A stretch of 39,200 bases of DNA from Methanomicrobia archaeon LH_S13 (GTDB taxonomy: Archaea > Halobacteriota > Syntropharchaeia > Alkanophagales > Methanospirareceae), in NCBI GenBank assembly GCA_023659785.1, contig JAGXOR010000001.1, positions 1-39,200 of the forward strand, given 5' to 3'. Shown here in pieces: positions 19,703 through 39,200 of this stretch (positions are counted from its first letter, which is position 1; each line of letters opens with the position of its first letter). The translations under genes and the position numbers were made by a program. Under the pieces are notes generated by a model, which was not told the origin of the DNA, ran no database searches, and saw nothing but the letters and a program-made list of their open reading frames with translations.

Positions 19703-20123
19703 GTGAACTACCCCTCGCTATTGCAAGGGGCTTCCTACTTCAACGATAGAACTTGCGGAAATTGGTATCAACTTCCCTAGCGGTTCCACCTCAGAAGGCA
19801 CAAAGGGCAATCCCTGCCCCCCGCCATACCTCGCTCCAATATATTCAGCGAGGCGTTATAATCCCTATCCAGTTCTGTACCATATCTGTATTCCTTGCTT
19901 GTACCTCGTGGATTTACGTCTCCCACTATCTTATCAGCGCTCTCAGCCTTGTTATATAGCATAAACAGAACCATTTGCAGTATTTTTGTGTTCACTTTCT
20001 TCAACCCTTCCTTCTCTTCTTTCATCTTCGGTAGCATCGCCTGCGACTTATACCGTGAAGGAATCTTATCGCTGTCATTCCAAATAGCTAAGAAGGAGTT
20101 GTAGAGTAACCTGCATATCTCTA
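19703..20123 (-). mobile_element. tnpB: second, inverted relic of the same tnpB element family (independent internal deletions) with conserved 3' RNA region
   Basis: ORF 19777..20190 keeps EICRLLYNSFLAIWNDS..PSRYK.QAMLP.MKEE.EGLKKVN.K.LQMVLFMLYN and DRDYNASLNILERG. Segment 19703-19860 matches 6640-6796. Homology to copy 1 stops at about 20123. Confidence 0.7.
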
Positions 20124-20594
20124 TATGAATACTTTTATTGGTGGTGGTGTGGTAGAAAAGATTTATCTGCTCTCTATACACCCCTACCATAATAGAAGAA
20201 ATATCCGGACTTTAGGTAGGAGATAAGGGTTCTAGTTTAAGCGGTCTTTCATAGTCATAAGACCACCTCTACCTGAGGCTTCATCGTATCATACGGTTTC
20301 CCTCTCGAGTTCATCGGGAATCCTTCCATTCCGCCCCCGTCTGGTCGAACCCGCCCACAGCATCCCATTCACACCGTTTCCAGTATGACATCATCTACCG
20401 TAGGGAAGTCCCTCCATCTTTAGTCTTTTTTCTTTTCCTAAACCACTAATTGAACGCTGGGCTTATTGATATTGCCGACGCCTTATAGAGTGGTTATTTC
20501 GATCACTTATCATATTGATTTTTGTTATATAAAAAGCTTTTCTATACTCTACTTAAAAACGAACTGTTACAAAGGCAATATTGATGTGGCATTT

Positions 20595-26774: not shown

Positions 26775-27455
26775 ATGGAAAATGCAAAGTGCAAAAGTAA
26801 AGTGATAATAAAATTGGGTGGTAGCCTGTTAGAGAAAGGCCGTGATGTCATACAGTCTCTTAGAGATTATGTAGAAGAGAAAGAGAAAGAGAAAGATAGA
26901 GCTTTAACCATGATATTAATTCCGGGTGGTGGACCTTTTGCTGATGCCGTAAGAAATCTATCGGGAGATACACATATACCAATATCAGAGGAGGCTGCGC
27001 ACTGGATGGCGGTTTTCGCAATGCACCAGTACGGCATTTTTTTGGCATCGGGTGAAATTGAAATACCATTAGTTGAAAGCGTGGATGAAATAGATAAAGC
27101 TGGACCGATATGCATATTACTACCCTATAAGATTCTAAAAGCGGCCAATTGCCTACCGCATACCTGGGCTGTTACATCTGACACGATAGCTGCGTTTGTT
27201 GCAAATAAAATAGGCGAAAAGACCTTCATAAAACTGACCGACGTTGATGGGATACTAGACGAAAAGGGGCATCTTATCAAAAAAATCTCTGCAAAAGAGA
27301 TGTTTAAGAAAGAGAAGAAGGGATGTATTGACGCAGAACTACCGGGATTTTTAACGCAGAATAAAATGAGTTGCATTATTGTAAACGGTAACTTCCCAAA
27401 TCGAATAATAGACGTAATCGAAGAAAAAGAGACAAATTGCACAAAACTTTTTTAA
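26775..27455 (+). CDS. amino-acid-kinase-fold family kinase (MfnE-like / uridylate-kinase-like)
   Basis: 226 aa. VIIKLGGSLL, LIPGGGPFAD, TSDTIAAFVA and LTDVDGI. Confidence 0.6.
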   Translation: MENAKCKSKVIIKLGGSLLEKGRDVIQSLRDYVEEKEKEKDRALTMILIPGGGPFADAVRNLSGDTHIPISEEAAHWMAVFAMHQYGIFLASGEIEIPLVESVDEIDKAGPICILLPYKILKAANCLPHTWAVTSDTIAAFVANKIGEKTFIKLTDVDGILDEKGHLIKKISAKEMFKKEKKGCIDAELPGFLTQNKMSCIIVNGNFPNRIIDVIEEKETNCTKLF

Positions 27456-28360
27456 CTAACGTCAGCCGCAGAGGCTTTTTCTCGACGAGGATGTGGGGAA
27501 AGAGAATCTATATCTACTTCTAAACTTTTTCCCAATTCCTTATACCTGTTTCGAATTGTAATCTCAGTTGTACCTACAACCTTAGCTATTTCCTTCTCCG
27601 TTCGATACTCACCACTTAAAACTGTGGCAATATATATCGCCGCAGCTGCGGTTCCTATCGGTGCCCAGCCTCTGGCTGCTCCCTTTCCCTTATTCTCCTT
27701 TAGTATCTCTATTGCCTTTTCCCTTATCCTCTCGCTTAACCCAAGCTCAGAGCAGAACCGAGGGACATAGTGTGATGGATCCGCAGGTGCAATCTTCAAT
27801 TCAAATTTCCTTAAAAGAAAAAGGTATGACCTCCTTATTTTCTTTAGGGGACTTCTTGACACCGCTGCGATCTCTTTCAGTGTTCGTGGAATTCCATACT
27901 GTCTACAAATAATGTACAGCATTGCAGAGACCAATTCTTCTATGCTTCGCCCCTTGATCAAACAGCGCTTCGCCGCTTTTCGGTACAGCACTGCAGTTGT
28001 TTCCTTTATATCATTCGGCAGCTTAAGTGCGCATGCCATTCTATCTATCTCGATAAGCGCGAAGGCAAGAGTTTTTTCACTACTACCCATATTTACCCAT
28101 CGCAATCTTTTTATCCCCGCGGGCAATTTTGGCGTAGATGTGCTCAGTCCTTTATCGTGAATTCTATAACTCATTCCTGGACCGGTTCTTACCCTTTTAG
28201 AAGCTTGTTCGGAATCATACGCACGCCATTCGGGCCCAAGGTCTACGATATTCTCTGCTATTACCATCCCGCAGTCGGCGCAGTAAAGTTCCGCATGCTT
28301 AGAATCAGATACCACGTTTTTTGATCCACATTCAGGACAATTTCTTATTTTGTTCTCCAT
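27452..28360 (-). CDS. tfb: transcription initiation factor IIB (TFB)
   Basis: 302 aa. Zn ribbon CPECGS...CADCG, B-finger/linker, and two cyclin-fold repeats. Confidence 0.9.
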   Translation of the reverse strand: MENKIRNCPECGSKNVVSDSKHAELYCADCGMVIAENIVDLGPEWRAYDSEQASKRVRTGPGMSYRIHDKGLSTSTPKLPAGIKRLRWVNMGSSEKTLAFALIEIDRMACALKLPNDIKETTAVLYRKAAKRCLIKGRSIEELVSAMLYIICRQYGIPRTLKEIAAVSRSPLKKIRRSYLFLLRKFELKIAPADPSHYVPRFCSELGLSERIREKAIEILKENKGKGAARGWAPIGTAAAAIYIATVLSGEYRTEKEIAKVVGTTEITIRNRYKELGKSLEVDIDSLSPHPRREKASAADVS

Positions 28361-28673: not shown

Positions 28674-29687
28674 ATGAAGAACCTCGAAGCCATTCTCGCG
28701 GGTGATAAAGGTTTGGGTTTGGGCTTGGGCTTAGGGCACGTATTACACTTGTATAATTCAAACGTAAACAAATATGCCGTTCAAATACCTTTCATTGCTT
28801 CCACATCCAAAAAAGAAAAGGTTATTTACGTGACTGCGGAGGAGGAGCTGATAAAAGAGGAGTTAGAAATAGAGAATTTAAATTTAAAGGTTGATATGGT
28901 TATATATTACCCGGAGGAGATGGGGAAGATATGCATGCATAATAAGGGGAGAATTATCGTAGACGTTTCTTCATTTGGTGATGCTTCGGTTATAGAAGAA
29001 GTGGAAGGAAAAAGGAGGGTTATAGGAAGAAAAACACTTTACAGTAGATATACCAATTACAAGCAAAGAGAAGTATATTTAAGCTCTATTTGCAATCAGT
29101 ACCCCAGTGCATATAGCATATTATGCAGTTATAACATGGATGAGCTGGAGCCAGAAATGAGTAACTCGCTGTTGAAATACCACGATAAGATAATTATGAG
29201 CACTGATGACAGCGATGTAGGCATGCCTTCATCTATACTGTTACAAACTACGAATAGTATTGCGGAGAAATATATGGTGCGATTTGTGAAGAATTATTTA
29301 GACATGATTGTGCTTGCATTGGTCTTAAAGAGAAAAATGTGCGGCACCGATATAATAAAAAGTATTCAAAAGAGTTTCGGGGTACTCCTGAGCACTGGAA
29401 CAGTATATCCACTTTTGCATGATTTGGAGGAAAAGGGACTATTAGACTGCGAATACGGTATAAGAAGGAGGTACAAAAAGAAGGTATATAAGCCAAAAGA
29501 TGAACAGCAGGTAAAGAATATCCTGATAGAGCACGTTCAATCGAATAACATTTTAAACAAATTCTTGCGGTCTTTTCCTCATGATTATATAATAGGGGGG
29601 AGGGAGCTGGACAAGGAGGAAACAAGAGATCACAGTAAAAAACCACGAGATTTCAAAAGAGACACACAAGAGATGCATCCCTACTAA
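28674..29687 (+). CDS. putative regulator: MEDS-like N-terminal sensory domain fused to PadR-type winged HTH
   Basis: 337 aa. HVLHLYNSNVNKYAVQIPFIASTSKKEKVIYV resembles the MEDS N-terminus. LDMIVLALVLKRKMCGTDIIKSIQKSFGVLLSTGTVYPLLHDLEEKGLL is PadR-like. The last ~15 codons run into 22-nt box copy 1. Confidence 0.5.
   Translation: MKNLEAILAGDKGLGLGLGLGHVLHLYNSNVNKYAVQIPFIASTSKKEKVIYVTAEEELIKEELEIENLNLKVDMVIYYPEEMGKICMHNKGRIIVDVSSFGDASVIEEVEGKRRVIGRKTLYSRYTNYKQREVYLSSICNQYPSAYSILCSYNMDELEPEMSNSLLKYHDKIIMSTDDSDVGMPSSILLQTTNSIAEKYMVRFVKNYLDMIVLALVLKRKMCGTDIIKSIQKSFGVLLSTGTVYPLLHDLEEKGLLDCEYGIRRRYKKKVYKPKDEQQVKNILIEHVQSNNILNKFLRSFPHDYIIGGRELDKEETRDHSKKPRDFKRDTQEMHPY
29639..29660 (+). promoter_or_regulatory. 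22-nt conserved box, copy 1 (AAAACCACGAGATTTCAAAAGA)
   Basis: 21/22 identical to copy 3 (36550-36571) and 20/22 to copy 2 (31137-31158). It lies in the 3' end of the regulator ORF. Confidence 0.5.
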
Positions 29688-30842: not shown

Positions 30843-31127
30843 ATGCCATTTATAATTGACGACTTATTTCTGCGGATGCTTGGGATTTCTATCCCCCCTT
30901 TCGATATGTTATGGTTGATGGAGCAAATAAGGGATTATGCTTATACAGAGATGTATGATACAGAGAAGATAAATAGCCAGCTAAAAGAGAACAGGCTGCT
31001 TTACGAATTTGATGAGATAACAAAAGAGGAGTATGAGAAAAGGAACGAGAAACTTAATCACAAATTGAAAATGGCAAACCACGTGAACCACGCAAATATG
31101 CGGGACAGAGTGAATGCCCTGAGATAA
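30843..31127 (+). CDS. gvpG: GvpG-like gas vesicle protein
   Basis: 94 aa. MPFIIDDLFLR...MYDTEKINSQLKENRLLYEFDEITKEEYEKRNEKL matches the GvpG pattern as remembered. It starts directly after the stop of the previous gene. Confidence 0.6.
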   Translation: MPFIIDDLFLRMLGISIPPFDMLWLMEQIRDYAYTEMYDTEKINSQLKENRLLYEFDEITKEEYEKRNEKLNHKLKMANHVNHANMRDRVNALR

Positions 31128-31177: not shown

Positions 31178-31390
31178 ATGAAAAAAGGAAGAAGGAGAGG
31201 AAAAGAAAAACGCCTTGTGCCAAGATCTTTAAAAACAATAGATGCATTACAGGAAAAGGGGACAGTGGTTGATTTCAAGTACTCAACCAATTTAATTTCC
31301 TTGATAAGAATGGACGTTGAGGGAAGAGCTGCGATTAAAGGTTATGATGCCGGTGTTGACGTTCATCCATTCAAACTATACAGGAGGTAA
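31178..31390 (+). CDS. highly divergent GvpA/J/M-family-like small protein with basic N-terminus
   Basis: 70 aa. SLKTIDALQEKGTVVDFKYSTNLISLIRMDVEGRAAIKGYD aligns by eye to the GvpA core LAEVLDRILDKGVVVD.WARVSLVGIE.LTVEARVVVASV. Confidence 0.45.
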   Translation: MKKGRRRGKEKRLVPRSLKTIDALQEKGTVVDFKYSTNLISLIRMDVEGRAAIKGYDAGVDVHPFKLYRR

Positions 31391-31394
31391 GAAC

Positions 31395-33383
31395 ATGAAC
31401 AAAGAGCCAGGCTTTTTCTCTGATGAATTAAACCTCATATTCTTCGGTGGGAAAGGAGGAGAGGGGAAGACGACATGTGCGGCTGCAACTGCGCTGCGTC
31501 TATCAGAAAGAGGGAGGAAAACGCTTATCCTCTCCACTGACCCAGCTCATTCACTTTCAGATAGTTTCGGCATTCACATAGGTAACAAAATCACGCCTCT
31601 AAAAGACAACCTGTATGGTCTGGAGATAGATTCGAGGGAATTGATAGAAGAGTTTATGAAAGAAAATGAAATTACAATTTCAAAGATAGTTGACAGAGGC
31701 ACATATCTTGATGCCGATGACATATTAAAAATGCTCTCCCTTTCCCTACCAGGTATGGACGAGTACATGGCGATATTAAAAATAAGGGAATTGATGAGAG
31801 AGGGGGAATACGATTTGTTCATTTCCGATACAGCACCAACTGGACACTCCATTCGTCTATTATTAACACCGGGATTAGCTGATGAATGGATTGGTTTCCT
31901 CGATAAGTTGGCAGAAAAACACAGGTATATAACGAGGACATTCAGGGGCAGATATGTAAAGGACGAAACGGACGCGTTCTTAGAAAAGATGCATAGAGAC
32001 TTGAGGATGGTGATGAAAGCTTTTACAGATGTGAAAACGGAATTTGTGCCCGTTACAATCCTGGAAGCGATGGGTGTAGAGGAAACCGCAGACCTGCTTT
32101 CTGCACTTCAAGACCTCAAAATAAATGTCAGAAGCATAGTAATTAATAGAGCAAATTTATCCCCCATAGAGAAGTGCGATTTATGCGCTCATAGAGTAAA
32201 AGACCAGGAAAGGTATGTCAGTGAAATATATGAAAAATGGGGGAGATATGACGTTATACAGGTGCCGCTGTTTCCTCACGAGATAAGAGGGTCAGAAAGG
32301 CTAAGCGAGTTCGGCGATGTATTGGCAGGAAAGCCTTATGAGTATAAGCCAAGTGCAGAGAAGAGACAGCGAAAAAAAAAAGCGAAATCGAGAATAAAGG
32401 ATTTGCTGGAGAAAGAACTGAAGGTGCTGATTATTGGCGGAAAGGGGGGAGTGGGAAAAACAACGGTAGCATCAGCATCGGGTTTGTACATTGCAAGAAG
32501 AAAGCCGGGAAAGAAGATACTGGTGGGCTCTACTGACCCGGCGCATTCATTATCCGACTCTTTTGACCTGCACATAGGTAATAAGGTTACCAAGATAGAA
32601 AACAACCTTTATGGTTTGGAAATAGATGCGGAAGAGGCGATGGCTGAATTTAGAGATAAATACACGACGGAGATAAAAGAAGCATTTGAAGGTTTAGCCC
32701 GCGATAGAAGAACTGCCATTGATTTGCCTTTTGATAGGGATATACTTCAACGTCTCAAGGAGCTTACTCCTCCTGGTTTAGATGAGATAATGGCACTCGC
32801 GAAGATAGTGGAATTGACGAAGAGTAGTGAGTACGATTTAATTATTTTAGATACCGCTCCAACAGGGCATACCATTAGATTGTTAGAGCTGCCGGATATA
32901 GCATTGGACTGGTTTGATGCTTTTATCAGGATAATACACAAATATAGAGAGATGGTTTCGCTGACAGACACCTTAAGATTGGTATTAGAAAAGAAGAGGG
33001 ATACAGAAGAGACGCTAAAAATCCTGAGAAGCGAAGCCCAAACGGAATTTGTTGGTGTTACAATTCCAGAGGCGATGAGTGTATTTGAGACTGAACACCT
33101 CATATCAGAGATAAAAAAAGCTGAGATTTGTTTAGAGCACGTTATTATCAACAGTATTATTCCGGCTCCTGCGGCGAAATGTAGTTTCTGTATATCGCAA
33201 CTAAAAAATCAGAGGGAGTATATAAAAGAAATAGGAAAACTTGGCTACAAAATCACCGAGATACCTTTGTTCGAGCATGAAATCCGAGGTATAGATATGC
33301 TTGCTGACTTTGGCGAAGTGATATATGGAGAAGGGAGGAGTCATAAAACGGGGATTGGCAATAAATTATTTGGTTTTTTTTAA
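31395..33383 (+). CDS. tandem (pseudo-dimeric) ArsA/Get3(TRC40)-family ATPase
   Basis: Start at ATG 31395, preceded by AGGAGGT; the track ORF starts at 31317. Two P-loops (GGKGGEGKTT, GGKGGVGKTT). Two DTAPTGH(S/T)IRLL switch motifs. Two CxxC motifs (KCDLC at 32175-32186, KCSFC at 33180-33191). Confidence 0.85.
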   Translation: MNKEPGFFSDELNLIFFGGKGGEGKTTCAAATALRLSERGRKTLILSTDPAHSLSDSFGIHIGNKITPLKDNLYGLEIDSRELIEEFMKENEITISKIVDRGTYLDADDILKMLSLSLPGMDEYMAILKIRELMREGEYDLFISDTAPTGHSIRLLLTPGLADEWIGFLDKLAEKHRYITRTFRGRYVKDETDAFLEKMHRDLRMVMKAFTDVKTEFVPVTILEAMGVEETADLLSALQDLKINVRSIVINRANLSPIEKCDLCAHRVKDQERYVSEIYEKWGRYDVIQVPLFPHEIRGSERLSEFGDVLAGKPYEYKPSAEKRQRKKKAKSRIKDLLEKELKVLIIGGKGGVGKTTVASASGLYIARRKPGKKILVGSTDPAHSLSDSFDLHIGNKVTKIENNLYGLEIDAEEAMAEFRDKYTTEIKEAFEGLARDRRTAIDLPFDRDILQRLKELTPPGLDEIMALAKIVELTKSSEYDLIILDTAPTGHTIRLLELPDIALDWFDAFIRIIHKYREMVSLTDTLRLVLEKKRDTEETLKILRSEAQTEFVGVTIPEAMSVFETEHLISEIKKAEICLEHVIINSIIPAPAAKCSFCISQLKNQREYIKEIGKLGYKITEIPLFEHEIRGIDMLADFGEVIYGEGRSHKTGIGNKLFGFF

Positions 33384-33405: not shown

Positions 33406-33624
33406 ATGGGAAGAAAGAAGTATTGGCAAAGAAGCATGGAAATTTACTTCAGGGAGCAGAATAGAAAGCGTGATCCTTTAAAGCTTCGTGAGGAAATGGA
33501 AAAGGGAACTAAAGAAATCAGTGAAAAAATGAGTTCTTATGTGGAAGAGAAAAGTGAAGAGCGAGATGACTATGCAAAAAGATTCCAGGAAGATGTGAAA
33601 AAGATAAAGAATAGACTGAGATAA
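33406..33624 (+). CDS. small charged coiled-coil-like protein (72 aa)
   Basis: ATG preceded by a purine-rich RBS. N-terminal KKYWQR resembles KEHWQR of ORF 34694. No family recognised. Confidence 0.5.
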   Translation: MGRKKYWQRSMEIYFREQNRKRDPLKLREEMEKGTKEISEKMSSYVEEKSEERDDYAKRFQEDVKKIKNRLR

Positions 33625-33631
33625 AAAAGGG

Positions 33632-33641
33632 TTTTATATCA
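33632..33641 (+). promoter_or_regulatory. putative TATA box (TTTTATATCA) of an internal promoter
   Basis: Lies in the only long (112 nt) intergenic gap of this sub-cluster and carries the same 10-mer as 29723-29732. Confidence 0.25.
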
Positions 33642-33736
33642 AATCCCGCTATAATCGAAATCCTTTTGAATGCAGACTTCTAACATAAAATTTGAAATTA
33701 AAAAAATAAAAGAGTTTTTAACGAGGTGTGAAAAAA

Positions 33737-33961
33737 ATGGTTACACGAGAAGCAAAAAGTAGGGGAAAGTTGGTAGCGGAATTGGATGATTCAACGTATA
33801 GGGCGATAGCAGGTAAGGTACGTAGTCACTTATCTCCTCGTGTGTATATCTCACCTGAGAGGACAAGTGTAGAAGGTAAGAAAGTAGTCAGGCTGTGGAG
33901 CAGATACCCGGAAGCTGCGAAAAGAGCGGTTCAAAAGGTATTGGCTGAGAGGCGTAAATAA
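33737..33961 (+). CDS. small basic hypothetical protein (74 aa)
   Basis: ATG 33737 sits 8 nt after GAGGTG; the track uses GTG 33728. No family recognised. Confidence 0.5.
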   Translation: MVTREAKSRGKLVAELDDSTYRAIAGKVRSHLSPRVYISPERTSVEGKKVVRLWSRYPEAAKRAVQKVLAERRK

Positions 33962-33978
33962 AAAAGGAGGTAATAAAA

Positions 33979-34188
33979 ATGACTTCGGTAAGGAGTTATA
34001 GTATGGAGAAGGATAGAGCGATAAAAGAGATACAAGCAGGAATTGAAGAGGTTGAAGAAAGAATGGCGGCTGGTATAAGTGAGCTACAAGCAGAAAGAGA
34101 AGCGGTTGAAAGAAGAGTTGCTGCGGATACTACGGAGAAGCAGAAAGATTCAGATAGGTTTGCAGAAGAGTTTTGGGAAGGAGAATGA
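33979..34188 (+). CDS. small acidic coiled-coil-like protein (69 aa)
   Basis: AAGGAGGT RBS upstream. E/A/R-rich heptad-like sequence. Confidence 0.5.
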   Translation: MTSVRSYSMEKDRAIKEIQAGIEEVEERMAAGISELQAEREAVERRVAADTTEKQKDSDRFAEEFWEGE

Positions 34189-34217
34189 AAGGTTATAAAA
34201 AATAGGGGGTGATAAGA

Positions 34218-34430
34218 ATGGTTACTATGCGACCGAATAGTGGAACAACACCAGGGAAGGATAAAGCAGCAAGAGACAGGCAAGTGAAGTTTTTAAGATA
34301 TCTCAGGACGAGAACACAACACTTATCTCTCACATTACGTCCACGCGGCGTTCGACAACTCTGGATGGTGGAGGAACAGAGATGGCGTGGCAGGGAGTGG
34401 TGGAAGAAAGATAAAGATTGGTGGAGGTAA
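34218..34430 (+). CDS. small basic protein with Trp/Arg-rich C-terminus (70 aa, ...EEQRWRGREWWKKDKDWWR)
   Basis: ATG 34218 follows GGGGGTG; GTG 34209 is an alternative. Confidence 0.45.
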   Translation: MVTMRPNSGTTPGKDKAARDRQVKFLRYLRTRTQHLSLTLRPRGVRQLWMVEEQRWRGREWWKKDKDWWR

Positions 34431-34435
34431 ATGAC

Positions 34436-34687
34436 ATGACGACTTCAAGTAGTATTTCAAGACGCTTAGAAGGGCTGGGCAACGAAAAAGAGAGGGTAAA
34501 AAGAGAGACAGAAAGGATTGATAGACAGAAGAAGGCGATACTCGAAAGAAGGCAGAAAGCATTGGAACGGGGTGAAACATTGACCGGGATGGATGATATG
34601 GAGAGAAAAAAGAGAGCAACGCGGTCGAGATGGGATAGAAAATGGAATTATAGAAGATGGAAAATTGATGCGAAAAAGAGGTCTTAA
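34436..34687 (+). CDS. small basic protein, paralog A (83 aa)
   Basis: ATG is 6 nt after the previous stop, preceded by GGTGGAGGT. It shares ERI.RQK....ERR.....RGE..TG.D..ERKK.AT..RWD.KW..R..K.DA with ORF 34694. Confidence 0.55.
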   Translation: MTTSSSISRRLEGLGNEKERVKRETERIDRQKKAILERRQKALERGETLTGMDDMERKKRATRSRWDRKWNYRRWKIDAKKRS

Positions 34688-34693
34688 AGCAAA

Positions 34694-34960
34694 ATGACAG
34701 GGAAAGAGCATTGGCAAAGAGATCTGGCGTATTTGAAAAGAAGCATGCTGGGTTCAGGGCAGTTGAGAAGGATTAAAGCACAGGAAGAACGGATAAGCAG
34801 GCAGAAGGAAGCTGCGCATGAAAGAAGACGAGCAGCTATAAAAAGGGGTGAAGTAATAACCGGGATAGACAAGGTGGAAAGGAAAAAGTTAGCAACGCAG
34901 CATAGATGGGATGGAAAATGGGCTCGCAGGAAAATGAAATTGGACGCAAGAAGGAGGTAG
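34694..34960 (+). CDS. small basic protein, paralog B (88 aa)
   Basis: Tandem paralog of 34436..34687 (see motif above). Confidence 0.55.
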   Translation: MTGKEHWQRDLAYLKRSMLGSGQLRRIKAQEERISRQKEAAHERRRAAIKRGEVITGIDKVERKKLATQHRWDGKWARRKMKLDARRR

Positions 34961-34966
34961 GTAAAA

Positions 34967-35329
34967 ATGGAAAAAATCGGTGCGGAAATCGAAGATGCGA
35001 GAATACAAAGTGTATATGATATATGGGGAAAGAAGCCGCCGGGAATTAGATTCTGCGATACTGATGTTTTAACCATAGCTGCAAAGACAGATGAGAGTGA
35101 GGAAGTAAAAGACACTTTCTTTTTCTCTCTAAAAGCAGATGGAACATTTGCTGTAAATACCGCGCACAGAATAAGCCGTTTAAGAAGAAAAAGACTGGCT
35201 GAATTCCTTAGATACTACAATATCGCAGATAAAGTGGAGGAATACAACTTAAGAAAGGGAATAGAGGAATGGAAAGGGAAGAAGATAGAAGTGGTTAAAA
35301 GCAACGGAAGGTATATTTTTGTTCAATAA
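34967..35329 (+). CDS. hypothetical protein (120 aa)
   Basis: AAGGAGGTAGGT RBS. No family recognised. Confidence 0.5.
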   Translation: MEKIGAEIEDARIQSVYDIWGKKPPGIRFCDTDVLTIAAKTDESEEVKDTFFFSLKADGTFAVNTAHRISRLRRKRLAEFLRYYNIADKVEEYNLRKGIEEWKGKKIEVVKSNGRYIFVQ

Positions 35330-35466: not shown

Positions 35467-35488
35467 GCTTAAAAGAGGAAGAAAATAT

Positions 35489-35519
35489 CCTGTTCTTTTC
35501 TCTCTATTTTTCTTTTTTT
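35489..35519 (+). terminator. oligo-T/pyrimidine-rich tract, candidate archaeal terminator, followed by the TATA-like GATAAATAT
   Basis: CCTGTTCTTTTCTCTCTATTTTTCTTTTTTT directly follows the last small ORF. The TATA-like element lies about 20 nt before ATG 35543, so a near-leaderless transcript is possible. Confidence 0.35.
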
Positions 35520-35542
35520 GATAAATATGATTGTATTCAAAA

Positions 35543-36574
35543 ATGGTAGAAAATAAAGGTAAATACGTCTATGGAATATTAAACAACGGTGAGGGAAGGA
35601 GTTTTGGAGAAATCGGGATTAACAAAGAAGAGGCTTACTGCATCAATTTTAAGGATATTTCCGCCGTGGTTGGCGATTCTGCACTTAAGACATACGAAGT
35701 GACGAGGGAAAAATTGCTTGCTCATGAACAGGTCATCCAAGAGGTGATGAAAGAGCATACTATCATCCCAATGACGTTTGGAACCGTTGCTAAGGACGAG
35801 AAAGATGTCGAGAATATGCTTGAGCGGATGTACGCGGAATTCAAGCAGGTGCTGAAGAGAATAGAGAATAAATTGCAGATAGATGTGAAAGCGATTTGGA
35901 ATAAAGATGTAATTTACACGGGTATTTTGAGAGAAGATGAAGGGATAAGGAGGTTAAGTGAAAAGGCATCAAAAAAACCGGCTGATAAGACTTATGATGA
36001 AAAGGTGGAATTAGGTAAGAAAGTGATGTCAGCCGTGGATAAGAGGAAAGAGAGGTATATAAAAGAGATAACTGAGGCTTTGAGCACTTATATAGAAGAT
36101 TCACAGCAGAATAAACTCAAAGATGACAAAATGATAATGAACACTTCTTTTCTCGTGGCTAAAAGCAAAGAGCAAGAGATTTATAAAAAATTGGACGAGT
36201 TGGATGAGAAATATGGAGAGGACGTGCAGGTTATAGCAGTTGGACCTTTGCCTCCTTATAATTTCTCGCATATAGAAATAAAGCCTATGGATTTCGATAC
36301 GATTGATTCTGCCCGTAGAACATTAGGCTTGGGTAAGGGGGTGACGATGTCAGAAATTGATGATGCATATAACCGCCTGGCATTGCAATTCCATCCTGAC
36401 CGAAATCCTGATGCGTCAGCAAAAGAGAAGTTCAAGGAGATAGAGCAAGCTTATTCTACGCTGCGAGATTATTGCTCACGATATGTGTATTCATTCAAGA
36501 AGAAGGATGTGGAGAAGACTGTGATGGTGTATATAGCTAGCGGAGGTAAAAAACCACGAGATTTCACAAGATAG
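35543..36574 (+). CDS. GvpL/GvpF-family protein fused to a C-terminal J-domain (DnaJ-type, HPD motif)
   Basis: 343 aa. GKYVYGILN...FKDISAVVGDS...HEQVIQEVMKEHTIIPMTFGTV...MNTSFLVAKSK...GPLPPYNF is GvpL_GvpF-like. Positions 36302-36469 encode the J-domain MSEIDDAYNRLALQFHPDRNPDA.AKEKFKEIEQAYSTL (HPD at 36392-36400). The last codons run into 22-nt box copy 3. Confidence 0.8.
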   Translation: MVENKGKYVYGILNNGEGRSFGEIGINKEEAYCINFKDISAVVGDSALKTYEVTREKLLAHEQVIQEVMKEHTIIPMTFGTVAKDEKDVENMLERMYAEFKQVLKRIENKLQIDVKAIWNKDVIYTGILREDEGIRRLSEKASKKPADKTYDEKVELGKKVMSAVDKRKERYIKEITEALSTYIEDSQQNKLKDDKMIMNTSFLVAKSKEQEIYKKLDELDEKYGEDVQVIAVGPLPPYNFSHIEIKPMDFDTIDSARRTLGLGKGVTMSEIDDAYNRLALQFHPDRNPDASAKEKFKEIEQAYSTLRDYCSRYVYSFKKKDVEKTVMVYIASGGKKPRDFTR

Positions 36575-36587
36575 CAATTTCTTGTGA
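36550..36587 (+). promoter_or_regulatory. 22-nt conserved box, copy 3 (AAAACCACGAGATTTCACAAGA), whose 3' half forms an 8-bp hairpin (TCACAAGA/TCTTGTGA)
   Basis: Box at 36550-36571. Hairpin arms at 36564-36571 and 36580-36587. It lies at the gvpF/L-J to hsp70 junction. Confidence 0.5.
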
Positions 36588-36621
36588 GAATCTGTGTAAT
36601 CTGAGGGGTTATAAAGGAAGC

Positions 36622-38412
36622 ATGACAAAAATATCAGCAAGTGGAATCGTAGGAATAGATTTAGGAACAACGAATTCAGCAGCGGCGGTGATGATAGGTG
36701 GTGAGCCGGTAATAATACCAAGTGAGGAGGGACTTACACCTTACGGTAAGATGTTTCCTTCTGTGGTGGCATTCACGGACGAAAATGAAAGATTGGTTGG
36801 TGAGTTAGCAAGGATGCACGCGGTTGAAAATCCTGATAGGACAGTGAGCGGGATAAAGAGGAAAATGGGCACTTCGCACAAGGTAAAAATAGGTCCGAGG
36901 GAATATACACCGCAGGAAATCTCTGCTATGATACTTCAAAAGATAAAGATGGATGCCGAGGAATATTTGGGAACGGAAGTAGAAAAGGCGGTTATCACCG
37001 TGCCCGCGTATTTTAACGATAATCAAAGGATAGCGACGAAAGAAGCGGGAAGAATTGCAGGTTTAGAAGTAGTCAGGCTGATAAACGAACCTACTGCCGC
37101 TTCTTTAGCTTATGGATTGGATAAAGAGAAGAAAGAGGAATTAAAGATTGCAGTGCTTGATTTGGGTGCAGGGACGTTTGACGTTACGATATTAAAGCTC
37201 AGAGAAGAGCTGTTCAAGGTCATCTCCACCAGTGGAGATACTCAATTAGGCGGGCTGGACATGGACGAGAAGCTCGTTGAATTCATGCTTAAGGAGTTGG
37301 AAAAGGAATACCGGCTTGACATAAGAAGAGATAAAAAGGCAATGCAAAAATTACGGTCTGCGACAGAGAGAGCGAAGATAGATTTATCTACTGCAAGTTC
37401 AACGAATATAGGCATATCATTTCCATTTGTTGAGTTGGGGTTAAATCAGAATATGAACCTGGATTTAAGCAGGGAAGAAATGGAAGAGTTAATCAAGCCC
37501 GTAATTCAGAGGTTGGATGAACCGATAAATCAAGCGTTAGAAGATGCGAAATTAGCTCCTGAGCACATAGATAAGGTTGTATTGGTAGGAGGACCAACGA
37601 GGATGCCTGTAGTGCGGGAAAAAATCGAGCGATTCTTTGGTAAGGAAGCGGAGAGAGGGATAGACCCGATGGAATGTGTGGCAAAAGGGGCTGCAATTCA
37701 AGCTGGTGTTCTCGCAGGTGAGATAGATGATGTGCTTCTGCTGGATGTAATTCCTCTTTCCTTAGGTATAGAGACCTCAGGCGGGATTTTTACGCCGATA
37801 ATGGAGAGGAATACGACAATACCGGTAGATGAGAGCGAGATATTTACCACCTCAAAGGATAACCAGATGAGGATGGCAATACACGTGCTACAAGGAGAAA
37901 GAGCAATGGCTGCGGATAACACAACACTCGGCTTGTTTTCCTTTGATGATATTCCAGTAGCACCAAAAAGGACTCCTCTAATTGATGTCGCTTTTGATAT
38001 AGATGCCGATGGCATTTTAAACGTGAGTGCCGAGGATTTAGACACGAGTAAGCGCAGGGAGATAAGGATCGAAGGGTCAACAAAACTTTCAGAAGAAGAA
38101 ATAGGAGGGATGATAAAAAAAGCGAAGAGACATGAAAAGGAGGATAAGAAAAGGAGAGAGAGTATAGAGACGCTAAATCAAGCAAAGGCGATAATAGATG
38201 CAGCAGAGCTTGCAATAAAAGAAATGTACGAAGATGAAGGAGTGAATGAACAAGGAAAGGGAGAGGTGAAAAAGGGTGTTTTACAATTAAAAGAAGGAAT
38301 GAAAGGTGAAGTTGAAGGCGATATTGACATTCAGAAGATTAAAAAAGATGCTGAGGAGTTGAAAAGAATAATGCAGAAGATGTTGATTGATAAAGGAGAA
38401 GGAGAAGAATAA
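36622..38412 (+). CDS. Hsp70/DnaK-family chaperone (596 aa), no adjacent grpE or canonical dnaJ
   Basis: GIDLGTTNSAAAV, VITVPAYFNDNQR, LINEPTAASLAYG and DLGAGTFDV, plus a substrate-binding beta domain and a short helical lid. Confidence 0.9.
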   Translation: MTKISASGIVGIDLGTTNSAAAVMIGGEPVIIPSEEGLTPYGKMFPSVVAFTDENERLVGELARMHAVENPDRTVSGIKRKMGTSHKVKIGPREYTPQEISAMILQKIKMDAEEYLGTEVEKAVITVPAYFNDNQRIATKEAGRIAGLEVVRLINEPTAASLAYGLDKEKKEELKIAVLDLGAGTFDVTILKLREELFKVISTSGDTQLGGLDMDEKLVEFMLKELEKEYRLDIRRDKKAMQKLRSATERAKIDLSTASSTNIGISFPFVELGLNQNMNLDLSREEMEELIKPVIQRLDEPINQALEDAKLAPEHIDKVVLVGGPTRMPVVREKIERFFGKEAERGIDPMECVAKGAAIQAGVLAGEIDDVLLLDVIPLSLGIETSGGIFTPIMERNTTIPVDESEIFTTSKDNQMRMAIHVLQGERAMAADNTTLGLFSFDDIPVAPKRTPLIDVAFDIDADGILNVSAEDLDTSKRREIRIEGSTKLSEEEIGGMIKKAKRHEKEDKKRRESIETLNQAKAIIDAAELAIKEMYEDEGVNEQGKGEVKKGVLQLKEGMKGEVEGDIDIQKIKKDAEELKRIMQKMLIDKGEGEE

Positions 38413-38435
38413 AATCATAGGGGTGAGATAAGAAT

Positions 38436-38952
38436 ATGGAAAAAGGGAAGAGGAAAAAAAAGAAGGGGTTGAATTTGATTTCGGGGGTTTATTTAAAGGT
38501 TTGGGAGACTTTTTTGAAAGTGTTGCAGAAATTGCAAAAGAGTGAAAGACGGAGATAGAGAAGACTGGAGAGATTACTTTTGATAAAGCGAAGAAACTAC
38601 GAGGGATGTATGGCATTAATGTTAAGGTCAGCAGTGCAGGCATACCTGTTGTAGAAACTTTCGGGACAAGAAAAAGAAAATACGAAAAGCGCGAGCCCCC
38701 AGAACTCGAAGCGAACCTTTAGTAGATGCTTTTGAGGAGGATGAAAAAGAAAGTATGAGAGTAATAGCAGAATTGCCGGGAACTGAGGAAAAGGATATAA
38801 AAATTGAGATAGAAGGGAATATTTTAAAATTATCTGCGGATAGTAAAGAAAGAAAGTATAGTAAAGATGTAACACTGCCCTGTGAAGTAACTGGCGATAT
38901 GCAAAAGACGTATAATAATGGGGTATTAGAGCTTATATTGAAGAAAAAATAG
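38436..38952 (+). pseudogene. sHSP (Hsp20/alpha-crystallin) GvpH-like gene, disrupted by two -1 frame changes and one in-frame TGA
   Basis: The ATG at 38436 is in frame 0. The Gly-rich N-terminal region EGVEFDFGGLFKGLGDFFESVAEIAKE is in the -1 frame after the A-run at 38454-38461. There is a TGA at 38543-38545. The alpha-crystallin part, EPLVDAFEED..MRVIAELPGTEEKDIKIEIEGNILKLSA...NNGVLELILKKK, sits in a third frame, of which track ORF 38755..38952 is the tail. Confidence 0.6.
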
Positions 38953-39024: not shown

Positions 39025-39200
39025 ATGGAAAAAGAATATGAAAAGAGGAGAAAACGTCTAAAAGAGAGGTATCAAGCACGAAAAGAGAGATATGAGGAGC
39101 GTTACAAATCTGAAGCGCCGATGCCACCATCAGTAGAGGAAAAAGTAGAAGAAGAAATAAAGCCCAAAGTGGAAGCACCAGTACCGGTAGAGGAGGAAGA
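39025..39200 (+). CDS. partial ORF running off the window (MEKEYEKRRKRLKERYQARKERYEERYKSEAPMPP...), charged/low-complexity
   Basis: GGAGGAGGG RBS upstream. The frame is open to the last base, on the same strand as the cluster. Confidence 0.35.
   Translation, partial: MEKEYEKRRKRLKERYQARKERYEERYKSEAPMPPSVEEKVEEEIKPKVEAPVPVEEE

Follow-up and report, generated by a model that had tools for sequence, protein, structure and literature searches.

A likely dedicated J-protein/Hsp70 chaperone pair encoded in an archaeal gas-vesicle gene cluster

J-proteins direct Hsp70 chaperones to their tasks: the part outside the J-domain binds a client or a cellular site, the J-domain triggers ATP hydrolysis, and the Hsp70 traps the client (PMC8215388). 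The contact between the two partners relies on electrostatics between helix II of the J-domain and subdomain IIa of the Hsp70 nucleotide-binding domain (NBD); these contacts vary and co-evolve between systems and insulate Hsp70 networks (PMC7289447), with DnaJ K26 and DnaK E217 among the key J-NBD contacts (PMC13012618). In the specialised Hsp70s HscA and HscC the R56-E264 and K55-E267 bridges and the GrpE signature at 290-295 are absent, and ADP release is much faster and GrpE-independent (PMC8215388; here and below, Hsp70 positions are in E. coli DnaK numbering, assigned via PDB alignment, unless given for the window protein). A chaperone role has also been proposed for the gas-vesicle protein GvpF. 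Among the haloarchaeal accessory proteins, GvpF alone was found to bind GvpA, and it additionally binds GvpL, GvpG, GvpH and GvpI (PMC7688916); in Bacillus megaterium it associates transiently with GvpA2 as its primary partner, is the proposed GvpA2 chaperone, and is superseded by GvpG (PMC11445434). Here we describe a locus in which these two worlds meet: in a 39,200-nucleotide (nt) stretch of contig JAGXOR010000001.1 of Methanomicrobia archaeon LH_S13 (hereafter ‘the window’), a gas-vesicle (gvp) gene cluster encodes a GvpF/L protein that ends in a J-domain, GvpF-J, and directly after it an Hsp70. We consider it likely that the two are a dedicated, probably GrpE-independent J-protein/Hsp70 chaperone pair acting in vesicle assembly. 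The features of the cluster are collected in Table 1.

The first-pass annotation of the window, made by reading its open reading frames (ORFs), had described GvpF-J as a GvpL/F-like body followed by a J-domain with an intact HPD tripeptide, and all three elements proved correct. The GvpL_GvpF family (PF06386) covers residues 6-242 of the protein (profile positions 1-244 of 245, E = 5.3e-66) and DnaJ (PF00226) residues 260-316 (E = 4.9e-16; 59 bits, cutoff 27.8). The HPD lies exactly where it had been placed and corresponds to H284-P285-D286; it is unchanged in all 28 aligned homologues (34-90% identity), and the related loci that were scanned likewise have it intact in their fusion genes. The ORF is open from 35531, with the ATG at 35543 (MVENKGKYVYG) being the start supported by homologues. 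An AlphaFold2 (AF2) model built on the alignment of 28 homologues has a mean predicted local distance difference test score (pLDDT) of 86.5, and its fold agrees with the domain assignment: as judged by Foldseek, residues 1 to ~246 superpose on the GvpF crystal structures 6L5D_B and 4QSG (template modelling scores of 0.88 and 0.78, respectively), and the C-terminal ~57 residues match ~40 J-domain structures, including DnaJ (5NRO_B), at ~1.9 Å root-mean-square deviation. The J-domain helices of the model span residues 251-260, 269-283 and 291-313. The J-domain is followed by a conserved tail, opened by Y310 and C311, both invariant across the alignment; it is modelled with moderate confidence (pLDDT ~71-76) as a short helix and a strand (327-331) beside a strand of the GvpF body (244-248).

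With GvpL_GvpF and DnaJ as its only Pfam domains, GvpF-J falls into class C of the J-proteins: no glycine/phenylalanine-rich region, zinc finger or DnaJ C-terminal domain was found with Pfam, and the NCBIfam DnaJ models match the J-domain only, far under their cutoffs. The protein also scores below the NCBIfam equivalog cutoffs for both cyanobacterial GvpF (99.8 versus 350 bits) and GvpL (82.6 versus 200 bits), and on these scores it is a distinct GvpF/L subfamily.

The combination of PF06386 and PF00226 in one chain is widespread. It occurs in ~50 protein clusters (at the 90% identity level) whose identity to the window protein lies between 33% and 92% and which originate from NCBI, JGI, ENA and Logan assemblies, with the alignment unbroken across the junction. 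Recurrence of the single gene in ~50 independent clusters, drawn from many assemblies, shows that the fusion is real and old and excludes an artefact of assembly or frameshift. For GvpF-J and its Hsp70 alike, the closest relatives are proteins from metagenome-assembled genomes (MAGs) labelled Methanophagales, Methanomicrobia or Halobacteriota, and the source of the window therefore probably belongs to ANME-1/Methanophagales. Scanning one genome per GTDB species with a narrower alignment (A2), we detected the fusion in dozens of genomes: in archaeal MAGs (ANME-1-like, that is, anaerobic methanotrophic, as well as Methanocellales, Bathyarchaeia, a ‘Micrarchaeota’ bin and Thermoproteota) and in ~35 bacterial loci assigned to Syntrophus, Syntrophorhabdaceae, other Deltaproteobacteria, Elusimicrobiota, Chloroflexota, Actinomycetota, Nitrospirae and Saganbacteria. 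Among the bacterial carriers is a cultured gas-vacuolate sulfate reducer, Desulforhopalus vacuolatus DSM 9700.

The gene that follows GvpF-J in the window encodes, as originally reported, a complete Hsp70 (PF00012 at residues 9-587, profile positions 1-593 of 599, E = 8.8e-196). Between the two genes lie 47 nt (36575-36621) that lack a long T run; within them a purine-rich AGGAAG precedes the ATG by 4 nt. This gene order is strictly kept: Hsp70 is the next gene downstream of GvpF-J in 19 of 19 archaeal-type loci (the window and the related loci L001, L003, L005, L009-L021, L039 and L087), whose sources include ANME-1-like, Methanobacterium, Methanocellales, Bathyarchaeia and Thermoplasmatota MAGs. 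In many loci the two genes are a few bases apart or overlap by 4-8 nt. Three of the loci (L009-L011) entered the set solely because of where their Hsp70 branched in a first tree; GvpF-J lies upstream in 3/3. Conversely, Hsp70 was present in 0/29 loci with unfused GvpF only (within the available stretch) and in just two of 35 bacterial-type fusion loci (L006 and L022), in both at the far end of the cluster and non-adjacent. Across 16 loci the pairwise distances of GvpF-J and of Hsp70 correlate with r = 0.96, a value reached in 0 of 5000 Mantel permutations; the two genes have therefore travelled together.

The absence of a neighbouring grpE or classical dnaJ, also remarked on in the first-pass annotation, holds within the reach of our searches. 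Among the Pfam-scanned window ORFs of 19.7-39.2 kb there is no GrpE, DnaJ_C or zinc-finger DnaJ, and phmmer searches of all window ORFs of at least 50 amino acids with Bathyarchaeia GrpE and class A DnaJ queries returned only the fusion’s own J-domain, the GrpE test being weak because GrpE diverges quickly. Neither GrpE nor class A DnaJ was found in the related gvp loci, where the Bathyarchaeia GrpE query is likewise a weak test. The stretch leading up to the GvpF-J start (35470-35542) contains, as judged by eye, a T-rich run (TTTTCTCTCTATTTTTCTTTTTTT) and then ATAAATAT; these could be an archaeal terminator and a candidate TATA box, in which case GvpF-J and Hsp70 would form a separate transcription unit.

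The cluster Hsp70 belongs to a lineage of its own. It is 78-97% identical to members of ~32 clusters of the ANME-1 group, after which identity drops to 57-64% for a broad set of archaeal DnaKs. In a neighbour-joining (NJ) tree of 141 sequences with a Geobacillus outgroup, the archaeal gvp-linked Hsp70s, 55 in all, are monophyletic and separate from the 83 other archaeal DnaKs (199 of 200 bootstraps). Those of the bacterial clusters L006 and L022 pair together outside this clade. Also outside is a Bathyarchaeia DnaK, P0235 (L085/L086), which sits in a classical grpE-dnaK-dnaJ operon, and Bathyarchaeia as a lineage thus have both kinds of Hsp70. Family models are split over the window protein: it passes NF001413 (DnaK; 723.5 bits, cutoff 648), stays under the cutoff of TIGR02350 (726.2 versus 822.55 bits) and fails the HscA models (508-510 bits versus 620 and 708.55; 351 versus 743). 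Most members of the gvp-linked clade are 561-596 amino acids long, versus 613-646 for canonical proteins. A Methanobacterium MAG (L003/L004, 11272-12741) carries a gvp-linked Hsp70 of just 481-489 amino acids that ends soon after the beta-sandwich, without the helical lid. A four-residue insertion (TPYGKMF) that we had considered as a marker of gvp-linked Hsp70s was dropped, since ordinary archaeal DnaKs have it too.

Inspection of signature residues indicates an intact ATPase in an Hsp70 altered elsewhere. The catalytic and allosteric residues D8, K70, R151, R167, E171, D194, T199, D201, D326 and D393 are kept in the gvp-linked clade, and conserved counterparts in the window protein include D13, K79, R152, E156, D180, T185 and D187; the VLLLD linker is kept as well (window residues 371-375). 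The features connected with GrpE are not. Position 56 is Arg in 83/83 other archaeal DnaKs and in 0/55 gvp-linked Hsp70s (M65 in the window protein); its partner E264 is mostly lost (S246), and the loop P293-K294-H295 has degenerated (N275-Q276-N277 in the window protein). Most of the clade, the window protein included, keeps the K55-E267 pair. Judged against HscA and HscC, this pattern suggests that the gvp-linked Hsp70 probably works without GrpE. The substrate-binding arch is also remodelled: position 404 is Ser in all 55 gvp-linked proteins and Leu in all 83 others (S386 in the window); A429 is replaced by Ser in the ANME-1 group (S411 in the window) or by Glu in the Bathyarchaeia type; and V436 is replaced by Met in most gvp-linked Hsp70s, as in HscA (M418 in the window). 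Changes at 404 and 429 are known to modulate specificity, and Met at 436 makes for the shallower HscA pocket (PMC8215388). The remodelled arch (S386, S411 and M418) points to a specific bound segment.

The surfaces through which a J-domain and an Hsp70 meet differ from the canonical ones on both sides. Canonical J-domains have K/R at positions 22, 23, 26 and 27 (IRKAYKRL in E. coli, IKKAYRRL in Bathyarchaeia DnaJ), and facing them canonical archaeal DnaKs have E/D at 206 (83/83) and mostly E at 217 (68/83). In the gvp-linked Hsp70s, position 217 is K/R in 49/55 (versus 0/83 of the others) and position 206 is K/R/Q in 45/55, these being counts of sequences that are not phylogenetically independent. 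On the J side, none of 18 archaeal fusions has K/R at position 26, where N, D, H, L or T is found instead, as compared to K/R in 23 of 33 bacterial fusions (Fisher p = 6e-7, not corrected for phylogeny). Fusions of the ANME-1 group have D/E at J positions 22 and 23, and K192, R194 and K199 of the Hsp70 lie opposite, so that charge is inverted on both sides; in the window D273, D274 and N277 of GvpF-J are set against these three residues, helix II being acidic or neutral where that of DnaJ is basic. In three Bathyarchaeia pairs D26 of the J-domain is opposite K217 of the Hsp70. Because the docking patch of the Hsp70 and helix II of the fused J-domain change together, we read the pattern as evidence that GvpF-J and the cluster Hsp70 touch via the usual J-Hsp70 interface, and the ANME-1-group pair is probably insulated from any canonical DnaJ or DnaK. 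A further candidate pair, J K48 and DnaK D477, showed no simple covariation and was not used as evidence.

Taken together, gene order, the separate clade, the lost GrpE features, the remodelled arch and the co-changed docking patch support what the first-pass annotation had proposed, namely a fusion with a dedicated Hsp70. The pair could operate as follows. The GvpF body would hold a hydrophobic GvpA-family shell protein, or sit in the GvpF/L/G accessory complex, and the C-terminal J-domain would dock on the ATP form of the cluster Hsp70 through the co-evolved, inverted-charge interface. The HPD loop would then contact the conserved R152 (DnaK R167) and bring about ATP hydrolysis, upon which the Hsp70 would close on a specific exposed segment of the client presented by GvpF; in this way the aggregation-prone shell protein might be kept soluble or remodelled for insertion into the growing vesicle. 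ADP release would probably be intrinsic and proceed without GrpE, as in HscA and HscC, freeing the client for insertion. From the sequences we infer that the J-domain would stimulate the ATPase of the cluster Hsp70, for which the conserved adjacency and the interface covariation speak indirectly, that the client would be a GvpA-family protein, that the pair would act at the GvpF/L assembly complex and that the step would be one of assembly. In its fullest form, in which the gvp-linked Hsp70s are an undescribed specialised family, GrpE-free, insulated by the inverted-charge interface and driving an ATP-dependent handover of GvpA-family proteins from GvpF into the vesicle, we put the proposal forward tentatively, at somewhat short of an even chance.

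The evidence could be read in other ways. Instead of delivering a client, the Hsp70 could serve uncoating or recycling, dismantling the GvpF/L/G complex or stripping GvpF from inserted GvpA much as auxilin and Hsc70 would. A release step does exist, since binding of GvpF to GvpA2 is transient and superseded by GvpG (PMC11445434); moreover, in the model the strand pair 244-248/327-331 appears to tie the J-domain back to the GvpF body, which would place the Hsp70 on GvpF itself, and the conserved post-J tail is a possible Hsp70-binding segment. The same data fit client delivery equally well, though: the changes in the arch do not say whose segment is bound, and the tail is modelled with only modest pLDDT. 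We regard uncoating as unlikely. That the Hsp70, the Hsp20-like GvpH and the ArsA/Get3-like ATPase make up a quality-control island, which buffers proteotoxic stress from the shell protein without acting directly in assembly, is in our view more unlikely still. It would account for three chaperone-type genes in a single cluster, and heterologous expression of gas vesicles is reported in a passage of PMC12848028 to cause proteotoxic stress; yet a stress buffer needs neither a J-domain covalently attached to an assembly factor nor a private, covarying interface, and this proposal overlaps with the dedicated pair, differing merely in the directness of the role. A general-purpose DnaK that merely happens to lie near gvp genes, with the J-domain on GvpF borrowing a housekeeping chaperone, is very improbable. 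Annotation pipelines do label these proteins DnaK (the database names being ‘GvpL/GvpF family’ and ‘DnaK’), NF001413 is passed, and bacterial GvpF-J fusions mostly lack a cluster Hsp70 and have the canonical basic helix II. Against this stand the gene order, kept in every archaeal-type locus examined, under labels of several archaeal phyla; a clade apart from other archaeal DnaKs, including the Bathyarchaeia ones in grpE-dnaK-dnaJ; the failed TIGR02350; the loss of R56, of the signature loop for GrpE and of Leu and Ala in the arch; and a J-docking patch altered in step with the fused J-domain. As for a GvpF gene merged with a separate small J-protein gene by an assembly or frameshift error, the frame-disrupted GvpH gene next door makes sequence errors in the window conceivable, but with an identical single-ORF layout in the ~50 clusters and dozens of GTDB genomes and an AF2 model that packs the GvpF and J parts together, we give the idea almost no weight.

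Several observations do weigh against a dedicated pair in vesicle assembly. The tree rests on a biased sample (the 120 best matches plus the locus genes) and long-branch effects are possible. The interface covariation is not uniform: L010 and L014 retain E/D at 217 and have Leu at J26, and Bathyarchaeia-type Hsp70s have K at DnaK-477, yet the J-domains inspected keep K48. If the cluster Hsp70 is the genome’s sole Hsp70, it may also serve general functions. Neither GvpA nor GvpN genes were seen in the window, the cluster extending past the window end. Disruption of the adjoining GvpH gene could signal either decay of the cluster in this genome or an error-prone assembly. Finally, taxonomic labels are doubtful for some of the MAGs (‘Nitrosotalea’, ‘Halobacteria’ and ‘Micrarchaeota’).

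Table 1. Features of the gas-vesicle gene cluster and of the GvpF-J/Hsp70 pair (window coordinates).
Feature	Position	Strand	Basis
GvpF-J fusion gene, 343 amino acids	35543..36574	+	Pfam, alignment, AF2, Foldseek
GvpF/L body of GvpF-J	35558-36268	+	Pfam
J-domain of GvpF-J	36320-36490	+	Pfam
J helix II face (D273, D274, N277, R278)	36359..36376	+	aligned to DnaJ R22, K23, K26, R27
HPD tripeptide (H284-P285-D286) of GvpF-J	36392..36400	+	invariant in alignment
Post-J tail of GvpF-J, YC..Y..SF.K..VE	36470-36535	+	conserved in alignment
Cluster-encoded Hsp70, 596 amino acids, gvp-linked clade	36622..38412	+	Pfam HSP70; NCBIfam and PDB matches
PadR-type regulator, head of gvp cluster	28674..29687	+	Pfam PadR E = 6e-9, MEDS weak
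Second GvpF/L, unfused, with N-terminal extension of ~130 amino acids	29805..30842	+	Pfam GvpL_GvpF E = 4e-39, residues 130-261
GvpG	30843..31127	+	Pfam GvpG E = 2.7e-15
Tandem ArsA/Get3/TRC40-type ATPase, two domains in one protein	31395..33383	+	Pfam ArsA_ATPase E = 9e-149, two stretches
Run of small ORFs rich in K/R/E	33406..35329	+	no family assigned
GvpH/Hsp20-like gene, disrupted in window	38432..38952	+	three-frame translation; Pfam HSP20 on last 65 residues
Next cluster gene, truncated by window end	39026..39200	+	77% identical to first 33 residues of L001 13521-13928

For the gvp cluster of the window, locus L001 (90% identical) serves as a guide. Both it and L003 have a PadR gene at the corresponding place, the window copy being 86% identical to its L001 homologue, and the unfused GvpF/L is 85% identical to L001 3985-5016. 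The run of small ORFs ahead of GvpF-J gave no Pfam or NCBIfam match. Within it, two adjacent K/R/E-rich paralogues on the forward strand (34418-34687, 89 amino acids, and 34694-34960, 88 amino acids) both align to the same 102-residue L001 gene, one with 74% and the other with 48% identity (ORF 34694-34954 versus L001 8632-8940: 74%); the 120-residue gene at 34967-35329 is conserved, with 93% identity to L001 9617-9979. Downstream of Hsp70 the GvpH gene is broken: the ATG at 38436 is out of frame with the body, an in-frame TGA lies near 38544, and a C run near 38700 marks a change of frame, so that the intact 171-residue GvpH homologue of L001 splits into two frames on the window (tblastn). 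The disruption would be either a pseudogene or a sequencing error. Past the point where the window ends, L001 continues with two genes of PF00741 (GvpA/J/M family), GvpK and two further GvpF/L genes. L087, L016 and L006 have full clusters that include GvpA, GvpN and GvpO; that of L087, a Thermoplasmatota MAG, runs GvpA, GvpN, GvpO, GvpJ/M, Hsp20, GvpK, GvpF/L, GvpF-J, Hsp70 and is a textbook cluster. An ANME-1 metaproteome is reported to contain gas-vesicle proteins (Stokke et al. 2012, as cited in a passage of PMC4335971).

The tandem ArsA-type ATPase is listed as an ORF from a TTG at 31317, with the ATG at 31395 as the probable start, and scores 476 bits against the cutoff of 135 for TIGR00345. 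It is only ~46% identical to the two separate ArsA genes that L001 has in place of this single two-domain protein, while the flanking genes are 85-93% identical, which suggests a mosaic replacement of the ArsA region within the cluster. ArsA genes were found repeatedly in related gvp clusters; finding a Get3-like ATPase in a cluster devoted to very hydrophobic proteins calls for an explanation of its own. Among the archaeal pair loci, L001, L009, L012-L014 and L017 have ArsA and no GvpN within ~10 kb, and in L015, L016, L018, L020, L021 and L087 GvpN is present and ArsA was not seen; the mutual exclusion fails in bacterial loci. The ANME-1-like, Methanobacterium and Methanocellales loci showed no gene for the AAA+ protein GvpN within 10 kb; we considered whether Hsp70 and GvpF-J replace it, and rejected this as a general rule because Bathyarchaeia and Thermoplasmatota loci hold GvpN alongside the pair. 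Elsewhere in the window, which is archaeal, Pfam identifies a TFIIB gene (27452-28360) and a methanogen-type pterin-binding protein. An ORF of 137 amino acids on the reverse strand (19777-20190) resembles Cas12f/TnpB-like proteins only in their C-terminal TNB zinc-finger domain and is probably a remnant of a transposon-associated nuclease.

Bacterial GvpF-J clusters have neighbours of their own. Upstream of the fusion, often directly, lies a gene for a CDC48-like double AAA+ ATPase, also in Desulforhopalus vacuolatus: it directly precedes GvpF-J in L022 (4077-6209), L030 (5562-7721) and L037 (7551-9824), and is less close in L074 (6757-9021; an unfused GvpF lies between) and L007 (2909-5041; several genes between). 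It looks like a second recurring ATPase partner. In three bacterial-type clusters an actin-fold ‘Volactin’ of ~340 amino acids (PF25216) is encoded within two genes of GvpF-J (L007 5811-6839, L008 231-1250 and L030 9936-10994), standing where archaeal clusters have Hsp70; in L007 and L008 small LiaF-TM and holin-like membrane genes come after it.

Full-text searches of the literature returned no paper on a J-domain-fused GvpF or on a gas-vesicle-cluster Hsp70, and the main text of a large J-protein survey (PMC10410713) makes no mention of Gvp; GvpF as a targeting domain is new for J-proteins. How the very hydrophobic GvpA stays soluble and enters the growing vesicle is unresolved in the field, as is the function of GvpF, whose role as a GvpA chaperone has so far been a hypothesis from interaction work (PMC11445434). 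That many lineages encode GvpF-J beside a private Hsp70 with which it co-evolves supports this hypothesis independently, on evolutionary grounds. Should the proposal be true, GvpF would in effect be the substrate-binding domain of a J-protein, its long-debated role would be settled, and a missing energy-dependent step of gas-vesicle assembly would be supplied. For the Hsp70 field, it would add an archaeal specialised J-protein/Hsp70 pair with HscA-like hallmarks and an apparent charge swap of the docking surface, and with it a clean natural example of insulation between Hsp70 networks. There is an engineering side, too: gas vesicles serve as acoustic reporter genes and are proteotoxic in foreign hosts, where a portable orthogonal chaperone module could help.

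Set against characterised gas-vesicle systems, GvpF-J has both shared and distinct traits. Like GvpF and GvpL of Halobacterium, Anabaena, Microcystis and B. megaterium it has the full PF06386 domain and the fold of 6L5D and 4QSG, and its cluster has the familiar company of GvpG, a second GvpF/L, GvpK and GvpA-family genes (the latter two as seen in L001); what the characterised proteins lack is the C-terminal J-domain with its tail, and GvpF-J stays under the equivalog cutoffs of both. The bacterial GvpF-J proteins (for example of Desulforhopalus vacuolatus DSM 9700, Syntrophus, Syntrophorhabdaceae and Chloroflexota MAGs) share GvpF plus J-domain with HPD and reside in gvp clusters, but differ in mostly having no Hsp70 there and in a helix II that usually reads IKKAY[RK][RK]. 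They presumably use the host’s housekeeping DnaK, which fits because helix II is mostly canonical and the cluster Hsp70 usually missing.

With the canonical archaeal grpE-dnaK-dnaJ system the cluster Hsp70 shares ~58% identity, the Hsp70 fold, the short ‘Gram-positive type’ NBD without the E. coli insertion, the catalytic residues and the linker. It departs from that system in being shorter, in belonging to a separate clade without a detected neighbouring grpE or class A dnaJ, in the changes at R56, the 293-295 loop, L404 and A429, and in the reversed charges at 206 and 217. Auxilin/GAK-Hsc70 and other site-targeting class C J-proteins offer a parallel of another kind, as there too a J-domain carried on a module that binds a self-assembling shell recruits Hsp70; the families are unrelated and belong to another domain of life, and here the Hsp70 is specialised and co-encoded. 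Closest in logic are HscB-HscA and Jac1/Hsc20-Ssq1: in each, a class C J-protein, whose non-J part serves one client family, is matched with a specialised Hsp70 paralogue through a private, co-evolving interface (PMC8215388, PMC7289447). With HscA the likeness extends to the loss of the R56-E264 bridge and GrpE signature loop and to the altered arch and pocket, with Met at the V436 position. The parallel has its limits, since the client-binding module is GvpF and not HscB_C and the process is gas-vesicle formation and not Fe-S assembly. Unlike HscA, moreover, the cluster Hsp70 falls below the HscA cutoffs, branches among archaeal DnaK-like sequences and mostly keeps K55-E267: by its sequence it is a derivative of DnaK, not an HscA.

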